The notes beneath the pieces are model-generated. The model did no database searches. It was not told where the DNA came from and was given only the letters and a program-made list of their open reading frames with translations. From a virus (Duplodnaviria; Heunggongvirae; Uroviricota; Caudoviricetes), in the IMG/VR virus record IMGVR_UViG_2681813263_000014: a stretch of 5,518 nt of DNA; one strand, written 5' to 3'. Below are positions 1 through 5,518 of this stretch, in pieces. The position numbers were made by a program, and so were the translations under genes. Each line of letters begins with the position of its first letter. The first letter of the stretch is position 1.

Positions 1-280
1 ATGTATCAACACGGTTCAGCAACACCCGATACTTTTTCTAGGCTTCCACCACCAGCACGACAAGATGCCGCATACAGTGACCCAGTCAGTCCAGTTTTCA
101 GACAACCAGTGCGTCACCTTTTTGAAGGCGCTTTAAAGCACGTTTTAATCCAGGTCGGCCTGTCCTTGTTCCGCTTAATTTATCTTCAAATATTTGTTCA
201 TATCCTGCACAAACAAGAGCGTTTCGTTGCAGGTCTGTATTCTGGTCATTTGTTGATACCCTTACATAGCCAATCAGCAC
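1..280 (-). pseudogene. pin: Serine DNA invertase, Gin/Pin/Cin/Hin family, N-terminal part; probable pseudogene, and truncated by the window edge
   Basis: Minus-strand translation from GTG at 280-278 gives MLIGYVRVSTNDQNTDLQRNALVCAGYEQIFEDKLSGTRTGRPGLKRALKRLQKGDALVV, the typical N-terminus of Pin/Gin/Cin invertases, including the catalytic-serine context YVRVST. A GGGAG Shine-Dalgarno lies about 7 nt upstream. The frame hits TGA at 100-98 where these invertases have Trp, then continues as KLD*LGHCMRHL with further in-frame TGA and TAG codons. A full invertase of about 190 aa would also run past position 1. The ORF track extends the start to 304, which adds 8 unconserved codons. Confidence 0.6.
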
Positions 281-334
281 GCTGAATCTCCCGTCCAAAA
301 GCACAAATCATGCCATGCAGGCCAGAAACCGCCA

Positions 335-360
335 TTATCTAAAACCTCGGTTTACGAGAA
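335..360. repeat. Left inversion crossover site (gix/pix/cix-like, 26 bp)
   Basis: ttatctaaaacctcggtttacgagaa closely resembles the remembered gix consensus TTATCCAAAACCTCGGTTTACAGGAA. It matches the reverse complement of 3293-3318 at 22 of 26 positions with an identical central TC dinucleotide, and is itself an imperfect palindrome of two 12-bp half-sites. It lies 55 bp from the invertase start. Confidence 0.8.
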
Positions 361-1311
361 CTCGGCACAAGCGGGGAGAAAATACCGTTACTCAGTACAG
401 CGAATACCTGGACTAATCGACAAACATTCAGCGGTGGCCTTTCTGGTGAACTATCCGGCAATGCTTCTACAGCTGCAAAATTAAAAACTGCCAGGAAAAT
501 AAGCAATGTGGCTTTTGATGGTTCCTCCGATATCACATTAAAAGCAAGTCATGTTGGTGCGTTTGCCTTAGNNNNNNNNNNNNNNNNNNNNNTAGGGAAA
601 ACAGGAAGCACCGTTGCGAATGATAAAGCAGTTGGATGGAACTGGAGTAGCGGAGCCTATAACGCAACTATTAGTGGTGCATCAACGTTAATTATTCATT
701 TTTATATGGGAGAAGGAAGTTGTCCTGCAGCTCAGTTTCGGATTAATTATAAAAATGGCGGNNNNNNNNNNNNNNNNGGTATTTTTTATCGTTCAGCCCG
801 TGATGGTTATGGTTTTGAAGCCGACTGGTCCGAATTTTACACCACCAGAAAACCTTCAGCAGGAGATGTTGGTGCACTGCCGTTATCTGGTGGTCAACTG
901 AATGGTGCACTGGGTATCGGAACATCCAGTGCTCTTGGCGGTAATTCGATTGTATTGGGTGATAATGACACGGGCTTTAAACAAAAAGGCGATGGTAATC
1001 TGGATGTTTATGCTAATAACGTCCATGTTATGCGCTTTGTCTCCGGAAGCATTCAAAGTAATAAAACCATAAATATTACGGGACGTGTTAATCCCTCGGA
1101 TTACGGTAACTTTGATTCCCGCTATGTGAGAGATGTCAGACTTGGCACACGAGTTGTTCAGACCATGAAGAAAGGCGTGATGTATGAAAAATCAGGCCAT
1201 GTAATCACGGGGCTTGGTATTATCGGTGAAGTCGATGGTGATGATCCGGCAGTATTCAGACCAATACAAAAGTTAATTAACGGAACATGGTATAACGTAT
1301 CGCAGGTATAA
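343..1311 (+). CDS. Alternative tail-fibre C-terminal cassette (Sv'-like), startless and silent in this orientation
   Basis: Frame 1 is open from just after the TAA at 340-342 (inside the left site) to TAA at 1309-1311; the track ORF 508..1311 is its GTG-initiated part. There is no start codon or RBS at the 5' end. The C-terminus [15 protein letters not shown] ... [17 protein letters not shown] parallels the active stf C-terminus [16 protein letters not shown] ... [17 protein letters not shown]. Contains N-runs at 572-592 and 762-777. Confidence 0.85.
572..592. other. Run of 21 undetermined bases (N)
   Basis: Directly visible. The reading frame is maintained across it. Confidence 1.
762..777. 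other. Run of 16 undetermined bases (N)
   Basis: Directly visible. The same frame with a conserved fibre C-terminus continues downstream, so the masked length is probably the true length. Confidence 1.
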
Positions 1312-1313
1312 TC

Positions 1314-1847
1314 ATGCAGCATTTAAAAAACATTGTCGCAGGTAATCCAAAAACCGTTGAACAATACCAGCTAACAAAGAATTTTGATGTTATCTGGTTA
1401 TGGTCCGAAGATGGAAAAAATTGGCATGAGGAATTAAAAAACTTTCAGGAGGATACAATAAAACTGGCTTACACAGTTGAGGGAATAATTATTGCTATAG
1501 ACAAGGATGTATCAGCAATTAATCCAGAAGGTTTAAGTGTCGTTGAGTTGCCTGATATTACAGCAAATCGCCGGGCTGATATTTCGGGCAACTGGATGTT
1601 CAAAGATGGTGCGGTGATAAAGCGAACTTATACCGAGGAAGAGCAAAGGCAACAAGCGGAAAATGAAAAGCAGAGCCTGCTGCAGCTCGTCAGGGATAAA
1701 ACCCAGCTGTGGGACTCTCAGCTACAGCTGGGCATCATTTCCGATGAGAATAAACAAAAATTAACCGAGTGGATGCTCTATGCGCAGAAGGTTGAATCCA
1801 CAGACACCTCCAGCCTGCCAGTAACGTTTCCCGAACAACCAGAATGA
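1314..1847 (+). CDS. tfa: Tail fibre assembly chaperone, alternative copy (Tfa'/U'-like)
   Basis: ATG at 1314 lies 2 nt after the cassette stop, with AGGT 7 nt upstream. The N-terminus [22 protein letters not shown] is paralogous to the minus-strand tfa ([22 protein letters not shown]). 177 aa, stop TGA at 1845-1847. Tfa family assignment is from the remembered conserved N-terminus. Confidence 0.88.
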
Positions 1848-1850
1848 GAG

Positions 1851-1880
1851 AAGGCCCGCTATCGGGCCTTAATTTTTATT
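1851..1880 (+). terminator. Rho-independent terminator at the convergence point of the two tfa genes
   Basis: Perfect 8-bp stem aaggcccg (1851-1858) / cgggcctt (1863-1870) with loop ctat, followed by aatttttatt. It sits 4 nt after the tfa' stop. The downstream side on the minus strand is less T-rich, so bidirectional function is uncertain. Confidence 0.65.
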
Positions 1881-2403
1881 CAGGCTTTTGTGGCCATTCA
1901 GGATTTGCCGTATCCACACGGCTGACCAGAACACTGTAGCGTTCCCATGCTTCCAGTCGTGTGCGTTCCTCGTCTGTTGCCATATTCAGCCTGACAGCGC
2001 GTTCCAGCGGCTGGATGACTGATTCAGCTTCGGAAAGCAATGCGGCCTTTTGTGATTCGGCCTGTTGTTGCAGTTCCTGTTCTGTATATTCCCTCTTTAC
2101 TACTTTACCATCCAGAAACATCCATTTTCCGTTATTGTCTGCGTGACGATTTGCCGTAATATCAGGAACTTCAACTATGCTTAGCCCTTCAGGATTAATA
2201 GTTGAAACGTCTTTACTGACAGCAACGATGATGTTGTTCTCATCGTAAGCAATTTTTATGGTGTCTGGCTGAAAATTCTTTTGTTCCTCATACCAGTTTT
2301 TGCCATCTTCGCAAAAGAGCCATACCACGCCCGCTTTTTTAGTTAGCTGGTATTGTTCCGGTGTTTTCGGATTCCCGGCCTTAATATTTTTCAGGTGCAT
2401 CAT
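1876..2403 (-). CDS. tfa: Tail fibre assembly chaperone (Tfa/U-like), cognate to the currently expressed stf C-terminus
   Basis: ATG at 2403-2401 follows the stf stop (2407-2405) by one base, with GGGGAG about 9 nt upstream. Product [37 protein letters not shown]..., stop TAA at 1878-1876. The track ORF start at 2439 overlaps the end of stf and is an upstream extension. Confidence 0.9.
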
Positions 2404-2404
2404 C

Positions 2405-5386
2405 TTAAACACTCCCCACGTTGTACCATATTCCCCCAATCAATTTCTGAATTGGCCTTCTGGCAACAGTGTCGACAATATCATCCGCATTGCTGTTAAT
2501 TGCGGCTGTTAAAACATAACCTGACGCATCGCCAAAGCCGTAGTCGCGCCATACGTTTTTATATTCAATGCTGCCAAGACGAATATCCCGAACGACATGA
2601 TTATGCAGCCATGTGCTTAACCAGTTGTTTTCCCACACTGAACCATAAATATCGCCACTAGACGCAACTTGCGCACCACTTCCCAGCGCAAATCCCCCAT
2701 CTGTTTTAAAAATGAAATCACCACCACCATCTGAACCGTTATTAATATGAACACCATCACCACCGTTATCTTTCCACAAAAACATACGAATTCTTCCGTC
2801 TTCGTTGGCGAATGTAATGTGGTGGCGGTAATTACTTTTTAATCTAAAATTGCTGCCATTAGATTCAATATCTTTATAAAGATGTAATCCTAACTCATCA
2901 ATATGTCCGATGCGCGAACCATTTGAATAGAAGCTAATAATACCATCTCCATCTTGCCTAAATCCGGTGTCGTTATCTCCCAGAACAATGGAGTTTTCAC
3001 CCAGTGCGTTATCAGTAGCTCCAATAGCTAGACCTCCTTTAATTTTGGCCCCGTGGCTGACAGATATAGCACCTGTTCTCAGATTTATAGCGAATGGCCT
3101 TAATGGGCCGATATTACCGTTTTCGCCTTGTCCTTCAGCCGTCGGAATGAAATGAAGAAAATCTTCTGAACGACGGAAAATTAGACCGAAGGTATCATTG
3201 AAAATTCGCAGCGCATTCACCGTGCCAATTTTCAGTTCTCCGGTCATTTTATCGCCGGAACGCTGAACGGCGTTACCAGCCTTGTTTACCGTTTCCTGTA
3301 AACCGAGGTATTCGATAACGGCAGCAACGGTCGATTTCGCAAGAATATCCCGCCCGACTTTTGTCAGGGTTGCCAGGCTGGCGACATCATTCCCCGTAAA
3401 ATACGGAAACTTGCCTGCCGCAGTAGTAAGTCCGGCCAGCGCCGTCAGGGTGGCATCTTTCGGTTGCTTACCCGCAAGCGCGTTAGTCATGGTGGTCGCA
3501 AAATTCGGGTCGTTGCCCAGCGCCGCAGCCAGCTCGTTCAGCGTGTTCAGTGCATCAGGTGACGAATCTACAAGGGCGGCAATCGCAGCCATAACGAAAG
3601 CCGTGCTTGCGATTTGGGTATTATTCGTTCCCTGTCGCGCAGTTGGTGTTGTTGGCGTTCCGGTCAGTGCAGGACTATTTAAGGGCGCTTTCTTGTTCGT
3701 TTCACCCATTACCGCCTTAACCGCTTTTGGCGTTGCCGCCAGTGACTCGGAAGTGCTGTTGGTCGCACTGCTGAGCTGTACTATCCCCTTTTTCGTCGTG
3801 CTCGCATCCTCAAGCGCCACGGCGGATGCAATATCCTCTGCCCGTTTTGCTGCTGTCTCGGCGCGCGTTGCCGCGGATTCAGCAGCAACTTTGCTCTGAG
3901 ATGCAGCCGTCGCACTGCCTGCCGCCTCTGATGCTTTCGTTGTTGCTGTCGTGGCACTACCTTTCGCTGCTGACGCTTGTCTGGTCGCCTCATCTTTTGA
4001 AGCAGACGCAGATGATGCCGATGACGCCGCTGAACTGGCTGACGATGCGGCTGCTGCCTTAGAGGAAGCAGCATTGTCTGCTGAAGTCTTTGCATTTGTT
4101 TCAGAGGTTTTTGCTGCAGAAGCAGACCTCGCTGCTGCAGTGGCTTGCTCAGTGGCTTTGCCAGCCTTCGTTGTGGCTGTTGAAGCGGATGATGCGGCGC
4201 TTTCTGCCGATTTTCCGGCGGCGGTGGCACTGGCTGAGGCCTGCCCGGCACTTGTTGACGCGGCGCTGGCAGACGACGCAGCCGCTGTTTTTGAGCCTGC
4301 CGCAGCTGAGGCACTCTGTCCCGCTGCCGTTTCAGAAGACCTGGCGTTCGTCTCGGACGTTTTGGCCGCCTTCGCAGAATTTGCAGCCGCCGTCGCCGAG
4401 GAAGCTGCACTACTNNNNNNNNNNNNNNNNNNNNNNNNNNNNNNNNNNNNNNNNNNNNNNNNNNNNNNNNNNNNNNNNNNNNNNNNNNNNNNNNNNNNNN
4501 NNNNNNNNNNNNNNNNNNNNNNNNNNNNNNNNNNNNNNNNNNNNNNNNNNNNNNNNNNNNNNNNNNNNNNNNNNNNNNNNNNNNNNNNNGCCGAGGAAGC
4601 TGCGCTACTGGCGCTTGATGATGCGTTCGTTTCTGATGATTTTGCCGCCTCTTTTGAAGCCGACGCATCCCGGGCTGAGGTGGCAGCTTCTGACGCTTTC
4701 GTGGTCGCGGTGGATGCAGAAGTGGCTGCTGATTGTTGTGACGCTGCCGCATTCGTTTCTAACGTTTTCGCCGCACCGGCACTGGTAGCCGCCGCGCTTT
4801 TTGAGGACTCTGCAGCGGCAGCACTTTTTGAGGCTTCAGTGGCCTTTGTTGATGCCGTTCCTGCGCTGGAAGACGCTGACTGAGCCGACGAAGCGGCCTG
4901 TCCGGCTGACGTGCTGGCTGCACGTGCTGAATCTGCAGCATCAGTCGCATGGGTTGCCGCCTCACGGGCTGATGTGCTGGCATCGCTGGCTGATTTCTTC
5001 GCGGCTGCCGTGTTCTGTGCCACCGCGGACGCGTTACGCGCCACCTCTTCCACCATCAGCTCAAAACGGCGCAGTGCCTCCGGACGGGCATCATCCTCCG
5101 TCATGGCACCGAGAAAATCATTCAGCGTACCGGGTCGGGAATCTTCATACACGGTGATGGTCCCGGCATGTGACGGCGGGAATCCTTCCACCAACAGAAT
5201 AACGCTGTACTGACCGTACTCAACGTCCATGCTGTAACGCCCGGCTTCATCCGGATTTTCTGAGGCCAGCGTGTTCACCACCACCGTGGTGCTGTTACGT
5301 TTTGCTTTCAGCTGGATTGTGCAGTTCTGTACCGGTTTTCCTGTGCCGTCTTTCAGTACACCTGAAATCTTTACTGCCATATTCAC
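2405..5386 (-). CDS. stf: Side tail fibre protein, lambda Stf-like constant part fused to an invertible C-terminal variable part
   Basis: 993-codon ORF. The N-terminus [38 protein letters not shown] and the long Ala/Ser/Thr-rich region match my recollection of phage lambda Stf through ...[16 protein letters not shown]. The likely true start is the ATG at 5380 (MAVKISG). The sequence after EYLG (2405-3292) lies inside the invertible segment. Contains a 175-nt N-run at 4415-4589 with the frame preserved. Confidence 0.93.
3293..3318. repeat. Right inversion crossover site (gix/pix/cix-like, 26 bp), inside the stf coding sequence
   Basis: ttcctgtaaaccgaggtattcgataa is the inverted partner of 335-360. 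On the minus strand it encodes IEYLGLQE in the stf frame, at the constant/variable boundary. Confidence 0.8.
4415..4589. other. Run of 175 undetermined bases (N) inside the stf Ala/Ser-rich repeat region
   Basis: Directly visible. The stf frame is identical on both sides, so the run length is consistent with the true length (175 = 1 mod 3 fits the surrounding codon phase). Confidence 1.
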
Positions 5387-5391
5387 CCCAC

Positions 5392-5417
5392 AAAAAAGCC
5401 CGCCTGAACCGGCGGGC
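5392..5417 (-). terminator. Rho-independent terminator between lom and stf
   Basis: Read on the minus strand: gcccgcc ggttca ggcgggc followed by tttttt (plus-strand stem 5398-5404 / 5411-5417, A-tract 5392-5397). Lies 5 nt upstream of the stf ATG at 5386 and 28 nt downstream of the lom stop. Confidence 0.65.
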
Positions 5418-5444
5418 TGTCATAACACTGTGTTACCTGGCTAA

Positions 5445-5518
5445 TCAGAATTTATAACCGACACCCACGATGAAACCGTCAGTGCGCCAGAGACGTGTTG
5501 CTGTGGCGACCGTCATCA
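5445..5518 (-). CDS. lom: 3' end of an Ail/Lom-family outer-membrane protein gene (partial, continues beyond the window)
   Basis: Minus-strand frame reads ...TVATATRLWRTDGFIVGVGYKF then TGA (stop at 5447-5445). The aromatic C-terminal YKF is typical of Ail/Lom beta-barrel proteins, and the position upstream of stf matches lambda gene order. Only 24 codons are visible. Confidence 0.6.
   Translation of the reverse strand, partial: MTVATATRLWRTDGFIVGVGYKF

Follow-up and report, generated by a model that had tools for sequence, protein, structure and literature searches.

The 5,518-nucleotide stretch of viral DNA analysed here (the window) carries a tail-fibre switch of which only the cis-acting parts are kept. 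We consider it probable, at about 0.7, that this is a Gin/Cin/Pin-family switch, dependent on Fis and an enhancer, that exchanges the receptor-binding C-terminus of the lambda-type side tail fibre Stf and, along with it, the matching Tfa chaperone, and that is operated by an invertase acting in trans. Recombination between crossover sites at 335-360 and 3293-3318 would flip about 2.9 kb, joining the constant part of stf (3307-5380, minus strand) in frame to the cassette at 349-1311, which would replace that at 2405-3304. The locus itself would supply cis parts only, namely both sites and an enhancer-equivalent stretch lying in an invertase stub, and the inversion would be driven by a related invertase that a different prophage, or a plasmid, encodes within the cell. 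Judged by its sequence, this is the locus of the EC958 prophage Phi4, already described in E. coli ST131 in 2014.

Two crossover sites bracket the segment:

335-360, plus strand: left 26-bp crossover site, TTATCTAAAACCTCGGTTTACGAGAA, with the central dinucleotide TC at 347-348
3293-3318, minus strand: right 26-bp crossover site within stf, TTATCGAATACCTCGGTTTACAGGAA, with its central dinucleotide reading GA at 3305-3306 on the plus strand

As the original prediction had stated, the sites stand in inverted orientation, agree at 22 of 26 bases and have the central TC in common, as befits the Gin/Hin/Cin/Pin class, whose sites are imperfect dyads with 12-bp half-sites about a shared 2-bp core; the coding sense of the right site is VIEYLGLQE. 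A degenerate pattern fitting both sites matched twice in the window, against 0.00 matches expected from 200 shuffles, and a repeat finder returned the pair as a single 30-nt inverted repeat (I2). No third crossover site was found in the window even with 7 mismatches permitted. An Rci-type shufflon, which employs a tyrosine recombinase, 19-bp sfx sites and multiple segments, was rejected as a candidate, given only two sites and a recombinase stub of the serine (Resolvase) family. A search of the 26-mers against known gix, cix and pix sites, suggested beforehand as a check, likewise came out in favour of the Gin family. In its outer half the left site equals the gix that adjoins gin in SfMu, with P1 cixL differing at 5 positions, and both sites are letter-identical to the EC958 sites Phi4_3prime (left) and Phi4_5prime (right), which have been tabulated against, and fit, a consensus of Mu, P1, e14, p15B and S. 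boydii sites (Table 3 of Forde et al. 2014, PMC4134206). From centre to centre the sites are 2958 bp apart in the window, in keeping with the predicted segment of about 2.96 kb, but that figure counts in two N runs, and near-identical relatives, which have no sequence where the window has these runs, measure 2916 bp.

The segment between the sites holds two fibre C-termini and two convergent chaperone genes, an arrangement that had been predicted and that translations and Pfam searches confirmed:

349-1311, plus strand: silent fibre C-terminal cassette, open in translation from the site to its stop codon
1314-1847, plus strand: Tfa chaperone of the silent cassette, 177 aa, Pfam Caudo_TAP at E = 5e-34
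1851-1870, plus strand: likely terminator, a G+C-rich hairpin and T run between the convergent tfa genes, from a consensus scan only
1876-2400, minus strand: Tfa chaperone belonging to the cassette now expressed, 174 aa counted from the ATG at 2400, Caudo_TAP at E = 8e-37
2405-3304, minus strand: fibre C-terminal cassette now fused in frame to stf, with a gp37_trimer domain, within the 2405-5386 open reading frame

Both cassettes are in frame through the crossover sites, with a Caudo_TAP gene after each, and a simulated flipped junction reads in frame from stf into the 349-1311 cassette. The silent cassette, which carries N runs at 572-592 and 762-777, gave weak gp37_C and gp37_trimer matches slightly under the Pfam cut-offs; beyond the first N run (queried from 596 on and read as in relatives) it shares 93-94% protein identity with the fibre C-termini of P2-like phage H proteins. 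Its chaperone is 84% identical to P1 U' and SfMu gp50. The expressed cassette has a top match of just 44% identity in phage records, and at the DNA level it is 92-94% identical to invertible segments of some E. coli chromosomes and P1-like plasmids; its chaperone is 84-85% identical to P1 U and SfMu gp51.

Outside the right site the neighbourhood is lambda-like:

3307-5380, minus strand: constant part of the lambda-type side tail fibre gene stf, starting MAVKISGVL at 5380
5397-5418, minus strand: terminator-like hairpin between lom and stf, from a consensus scan only
5446-5518, minus strand: 3' end of an Ail/Lom-family outer-membrane protein gene (...GVGYKF*), read from the sequence

The lambda-like Stf constant region of the original prediction was borne out by a match to the Pfam domain phage_tail_N (PF08400, E = 1e-72, residues 1-134); the constant part also contains Ala/Ser-rich repeats, in which an N run occupies 4415-4589. 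The gene at the lom position is annotated or called Ail/Lom in relatives, and the lambda order lom-stf-tfa is present, from the lom 3' end through the PF08400 stf to the tfa gene at 1876-2400.

The invertase did not fare as predicted. The switch had been called complete, with a serine invertase gene next to the left site; what adjoins that site is a truncated pseudogene fused to a piece of tfa:

44-280, minus strand: serine invertase stub, a gin/pin-like pseudogene with a GTG start at 280-278
1-51, minus strand: 3' end of a tfa gene of the lambda type, joined to the stub and reading ...EA*KKYRVLLNRVDT

Alignments of DNA and protein against SfMu Gin (197 aa) and P1 Cin (186 aa) set the limits of the stub, whose homology to Gin and Cin stops near codon 79, so that codons 1 to about 79 take the place of a full-length serine invertase of about 185-200 aa; over half of the protein, including the E-helix and the helix-turn-helix DNA-binding domain, is missing, and the Pfam Resolvase N-terminal domain is matched over residues 11-68 only. 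Translation places three in-frame stops within the first 81 codons, among them 100-98 (codon 61, TGG to TGA) and 88-86 (codon 65). DNA comparison gives 95% identity with Mu-like gin over 90-355 and roughly 70-75% with cin and P2-type invertases, these latter matches reaching as far as position 44-49. The tfa fragment matches the 3' end of tfa in lambda and further lambdoid phages at 94-96% DNA identity, has a TAG in place of the Trp of relatives, and in E. coli relatives carries the annotation of an incomplete tail fiber assembly protein.

One might still suppose that the stub works, whether by stop-codon read-through or as a truncated catalytic fragment, since it keeps the catalytic-serine motif GYVRVSTNDQ and, over its first 60 codons, shares 95% DNA identity with a phage gene that is active. 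However, three stops would have to be passed in 81 codons, and because the sequence past codon 79 is a tfa fragment, the E-helix and helix-turn-helix would be absent even with read-through. These features effectively refute a functional stub. The invertase adjoining the left site therefore reads as a dead, truncated pseudogene, and with its nonsense codons, its truncation near codon 79 and its fusion to tfa, inversion here needs an enzyme in trans.

Part of the stub may nonetheless matter in cis:

191-262, minus strand: counterpart of the recombination enhancer (sis), contained in the invertase stub and located by alignment with the P1 enhancer

The P1 feature annotated as "enhancer of Cin-mediated C-segment inversion" (NC_005856, 31678-31749) aligns to these positions, where the window and phage SfMu are distinguished by 1 nt. 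Two Fis-like 15-mers, at 244-258 and 196-210, are centred 48 bp apart, and both matches to the Fis consensus are conserved in all three sequences compared (window, SfMu and P1). The enhancer position follows the P1 record annotation and the 1985 papers on Gin, Cin and Hin. On the strength of this homology and the degenerate Fis consensus, the stretch may act as an enhancer.

The presence of both orientations had been named beforehand as the test of the switch, and both were found in related genomes as well as in published long reads. Near-identical loci of 20 kb, obtained by exact-protein look-up of Tfa, occur in both states: L005 and L010 differ in orientation from L011 (Shigella sonnei ATCC 29930) and L012, their flanks are 99.7-100% identical, and their hybrid sites are reciprocal. 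Similarly, the clonal ST131 isolates 4/1-1 and 4/0 have flanks that match at 100% identity for 6.2 kb and 3.1 kb, and they differ solely in an inverted 3.1 kb. Their hybrid sites are again reciprocal and narrow the exchange down to 12 bp around the central TC. Precise inversion has thus taken place at these sites in close relatives. Among complete E. coli genomes, the junction in the window's (pin-side) state was covered in full at 99% identity or more in 375 and a synthetic junction for the predicted flipped state in 151, counts that mix lineages with independent events. None of the complete E. coli RefSeq genomes holds at least 80% of the window in one place. Exact-pattern scans of a species-representative genome collection, made with a 50-mer from 1281-1330 and with a 31-mer across the stub's two stop codons, gave no match.

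Inversions of this kind in the relatives could in principle come from RecA-dependent homologous recombination between short inverted repeats, and the hybrid sites, which narrow the exchange to 12 bp only, are compatible with either mechanism. The repeat is just 26-36 bp long, though, with 4 mismatches and a longest perfect run of 12 bp, and an imperfect repeat of 26-36 bp is far under the length that RecA recombination uses efficiently. Moreover, the sites fit the invertase consensus exactly, and the exchange did not occur at the longer repeat available between the two tfa genes (I1, 159 nt). Flipping was also frequent within one EC958 culture, whose PacBio reads contained both Phi4 orientations in such numbers that a second contig was assembled (Forde et al. 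2014, PMC4134206). We regard RecA as a highly improbable source of these inversions, and site-specific inversion by a Gin-family enzyme as the better account of them.

A more substantial doubt is whether the window's own copy still moves, as its invertase in cis is dead and a compatible invertase may be absent from the source genome. The locus would then be a frozen relic, a fossil in a decaying prophage whose genome expresses no compatible invertase. Further decay in the near-identical loci fits such a reading: there is a nonsense codon in the silent cassette (a TAG where the window instead has CAG at 1159), an IS in the expressed cassette, loss of both the right site and the constant part of stf in L004 and L006-L009, and a split J tail gene in L010 and L011. 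This decay in several near-identical relatives also argues against strong selection on the switch. Yet the window has its two sites and two cassettes intact, its variant is present in either orientation in genomes whose flanks are nearly identical, and prophages of Escherichia and Shigella commonly encode Gin-family invertases, which act on heterologous sites. For example, two full-length Gin/Cin-like invertases are encoded at other places in the genome of strain 4/0, and ST131 invertases of 190 aa and 199 aa are known. We therefore hold a frozen relic to be unlikely, if far from negligible, and favour a switch served in trans, in which the window's source DNA may still flip under an enzyme encoded by another element.

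The assignment to the Gin/Pin class of Mu, P1 and e14, made in the original prediction, is borne out by the sites, the layout, the in-frame fusions and the inversion in relatives. The closest counterpart is Phi4 of EC958, which has the same sites and a truncated invertase, and for which action in trans was proposed; its segment is 3106 bp with the sites included in the count (Forde et al. 2014, PMC4134206). The window locus is like Phi4 in its lambda-type stf, in its invertase stub and tfa fragment (99-100% identity over window 1-571) and in its chromosomal place, which in relatives with the window's left end is beside trpA and an ompW remnant. The interior, however, is another variant, found in Shigella sonnei genomes: its overall DNA identity to the ST131 allele is 82%, the expressed cassette shares only 47% protein identity with its ST131 counterpart, and the segment measures 2916-2958 bp from centre to centre as compared to 3081 bp in ST131.

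As in the G segment of Mu and SfMu and the C segment of P1, two S-type fibre C-termini and two U-type chaperones lie between inverted 26-bp sites. The transcription of the invertase points away from the segment, as in Mu, and the putative enhancer is placed within the invertase 5' coding region, as in Mu and P1. Unlike in those phages, the constant part is a lambdoid Stf (PF08400) rather than the S protein of Mu or P1, the invertase is truncated, and the element resides in a lambdoid prophage that is defective in close relatives. The e14 P segment resembles it in being an invertible stf C-terminus of a cryptic lambdoid prophage, and experiments in E. coli K-12 have demonstrated that PinQ, encoded by prophage Qin, inverts the e14 segment in trans. 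In contrast to the window locus, e14 retains an active pinE, has a segment of 1797 bp and uses other site sequences.

A role of e14 in defence against T2 has been shown. One might picture the window locus as a phase-variable Stf/Tfa module that the host has retained within a defective prophage and whose orientation depends on an invertase from an unrelated prophage. We think this doubtful, but were it true, one orientation might block adsorption of other phages, as with StfE2 and PinQ in e14, and the enhancer-bearing 5' stub might have been kept because it is needed in cis.

These findings leave the known mechanism unchanged, and the switch is real, ordinary and already known. An annotation that looks for an invertase together with inverted repeats would miss such loci or miscall them as self-contained, and E. 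coli and Shigella assemblies will differ at this locus independently of ancestry. The aggregate data point to a tail-fibre switch that can keep flipping after its own recombinase has decayed, given its sites, the enzyme of another prophage and probably the enhancer.

Read on the minus strand from its right end, the window has the order lom-stf-tfa, as in lambda, and carries a second fibre cassette that faces these genes.

Features of the window (coordinates, strand, feature)
5446-5518, minus strand, 3′ end of lom
5397-5418, minus strand, terminator-like hairpin after the lom 3′ end
5380 to 2405, minus strand, long stf ORF, with the prophage tail fibre N-terminal domain PF08400 recognised in residues 1-134 (E = 1e-72)
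2400-1876, minus strand, Caudo_TAP chaperone gene of the expressed side
1851-1870, hairpin with a T run, separating the convergent tfa genes
1314-1847, plus strand, second Caudo_TAP gene
343 (open from here) to 1311, plus strand, second fibre C-terminal reading frame, facing the stf and tfa genes

The domain match and the gene order bear out the lambda-like Stf constant region of the original prediction, and the reading frames and Caudo_TAP genes locate the two fibre C-termini and two convergent tfa genes that it had placed between the crossover sites. The Ala/Ser-rich repeat region of stf (3780-5200) also shows long ORFs that overlap one another in several frames of either strand (for example, 3951-4883 on the plus strand and 3781-4752 on the minus strand); these were rejected as genes and regarded as by-products of composition. 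The window also contains N runs at 572-592 (21 nt), 762-777 (16 nt) and 4415-4589 (175 nt), positions at which near-identical loci have no sequence at all, and the bases preceding each run (3, 2 and 20, respectively) recur as a copy right after it. The net extra length is 24, 18 and 195 nt, in each case divisible by three, so the reading frames are kept in any case; the runs may stem from masking, from an artefact of scaffolding or from a genuine copy of a repeat.

The left crossover site, 335-360 on the plus strand, is TTATCTAAAACCTCGGTTTACGAGAA, and the right site, the reverse complement of 3293-3318, is TTATCGAATACCTCGGTTTACAGGAA. These 26-mers lie exactly where they had been proposed, are identical at 22 of 26 positions with a common central TC, and were recovered by a repeat finder as an inverted repeat; a degenerate pattern fitting both gave 2 matches against 0.00 expected (200 shuffles). 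No third crossover site was found in the window with 7 mismatches permitted. The right site encodes VIEYLGLQE inside stf, the silent frame opens at the left site, and upon simulated inversion ...VIEYLG continues in frame into the silent cassette. The paired sites and the in-frame junction thus establish that the switch geometry is real, and its assignment to the Gin/Pin-type class is right. Another inverted repeat (159 nt, 71% complementarity; 1314-1472 against 2245-2403) reflects only the homology between the two tfa genes in their 5′ parts and is not where exchange takes place.

A check for both orientations of the segment, suggested originally and run here on other genomes, found both. A 442-nt query in the window arrangement, running from the invertase stub through the left site into the beginning of the left cassette, was matched at full length and at least 99% identity in 375 complete E. 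coli genomes. Its 440-nt synthetic counterpart, in which the right cassette replaces the left to represent the predicted flipped junction, was matched equally in 151. Two clonal ST131 isolates of a single Swedish series, 4/1-1 from faeces and 4/0 from a UTI, have 100% identical flanks (6,228 bp left, 3,147 bp right), and the inverted 3.1-kb segment is their sole difference over the compared stretch. Their reciprocal hybrid sites, TTATCTAAAACC-TC-GGTTTACAGGAA and TTATCGAATACC-TC-GGTTTACGAGAA, place the exchange within 12 bp around the core. The ST131 allele differs from the window mainly within the segment, the interior being only 82% identical, against 94-99% for the stub, sites and stf constant part. 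Searching for exact copies of the window Tfa protein gave ten chromosomal loci with zero or one mismatch to window 1-571 and few real mismatches further in. This window allele was likewise found in both states, with L005 and L010 in the window state and L011 (CP026802, Shigella sonnei ATCC 29930) and L012 flipped; here too the sites are hybrids, and between the two pairs 8.5 kb of flank on either side agree at 99.7-100% identity.

The switch had been called complete, with a serine invertase gene beside the left site; both statements are wrong, as only a truncated stub is present. Its frame on the minus strand begins with a GTG at 280, the same GTG start as that of SfMu gin, and includes the catalytic-serine motif GYVRVSTNDQ, followed by in-frame stops at codons 61 (TGA, from TGG), 65 (TGA) and 81 (TAG). 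When the stub is aligned to the 197-aa Gin of SfMu and the 186-aa Cin of P1, it extends from residue 1 to about 79, past which it becomes ...WKKYRVLLNRVDT, a Tfa C-terminus. Of the Resolvase catalytic domain, Pfam recognises the first half alone, and the stub lacks both the E-helix and the HTH DNA-binding domain. The gin 5′ end of Mu-like phages is about 95% identical to window 90-355, cin and P2-type invertases show weaker similarity down to about position 44-49, and the lambda tfa 3′ end is 94-96% identical to window 1-51. Left of this fusion, E. coli relatives (L002, 4403-5910) carry more tfa fragments, a DUF4376 fragment and a SAM-dependent methyltransferase gene, and the area looks like debris of successively replaced tail-fibre modules.

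The two Fis sites of the Hin, Gin and Cin enhancers are spaced 48 bp apart. In the P1 record (NC_005856, 31678-31749) the enhancer of Cin-mediated inversion is annotated within the cin coding region, and a three-way DNA alignment equates this stretch with window 191-262, which differs from SfMu by one base. A degenerate Fis consensus matches at 244-258 and 196-210, with starts exactly 48 bp apart, and all three aligned sequences (window, SfMu and P1) keep both matches. With this enhancer-equivalent stretch retained inside the stub, the cis-acting parts of the system would all appear to be intact, judging enhancer function by homology.

Full-length enzymes are encoded elsewhere in the genome of strain 4/0. 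About 530 kb from the switch locus, a P2-like prophage has two genes for Gin/Cin-like invertases of 199 and 190 aa, which share 72-76% identity with SfMu Gin and P1 Cin; these genes (L016, 5014-5613 and 7835-8407; about 955-958 kb) flank short tail-protein genes. A scan of the 18-kb L016 stretch for the window's site pattern, allowing up to 6 mismatches, found no site, so the crossover sites of that prophage must be of another type. That an invertase of this family can act across prophages has been demonstrated by experiment: PinQ of Qin inverts the e14 P segment. The switch locus considered here has itself been described as prophage Phi4 of EC958, with the same two crossover site sequences, a "severely truncated" invertase without the HTH domain, an alternative orientation assembled as a separate PacBio contig from one culture, and a proposal that the invertase of another prophage (Phi1) acts in trans (Forde et al. 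2014, PMC4134206). The locus type, its site sequences and the trans-action hypothesis are already in the literature, to which we add only three points: the enhancer equivalent mapped into the stub, the population count of both orientations, and their demonstration for the Shigella-type allele.

In origin the parts of the switch are mosaic, as is common for tail-fibre modules. Both Tfa proteins share 84-85% identity with U and U′ of P1 and SfMu, and H fibre C-termini of P2-like phages are 93-94% identical to the silent cassette. A search of 50,697 phage records found no relative of the expressed cassette (2405-3304) above 44% protein identity. At the DNA level this cassette matches invertible segments in certain E. 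coli chromosomes and P1-like plasmids at 92-94% identity.

Several relatives show signs of decay. At window 1159 the silent cassette has CAG (Gln). Six of the ten near-identical loci were translated, among them S. sonnei ATCC 29930, and every one of the six has TAG there, which removes 50 residues from the silent fibre cassette; the window copy is thus more intact than any relative retrieved. An IS3-family element interrupts the expressed cassette of L013 (11380-12643; equivalent to window 2689-2693) and occupies this position in several other relatives as well. Five of these, L004 and L006-L009, have lost the right site and stf constant part (beyond 11380), which locks the locus there. L010 and L011 have a split J tail gene, and ISEc12 interrupts lom in ST131. 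With such decay, the segment in any single genome may be a frozen relic that no longer switches. The prophage family is defective, and the window is its most intact copy seen.
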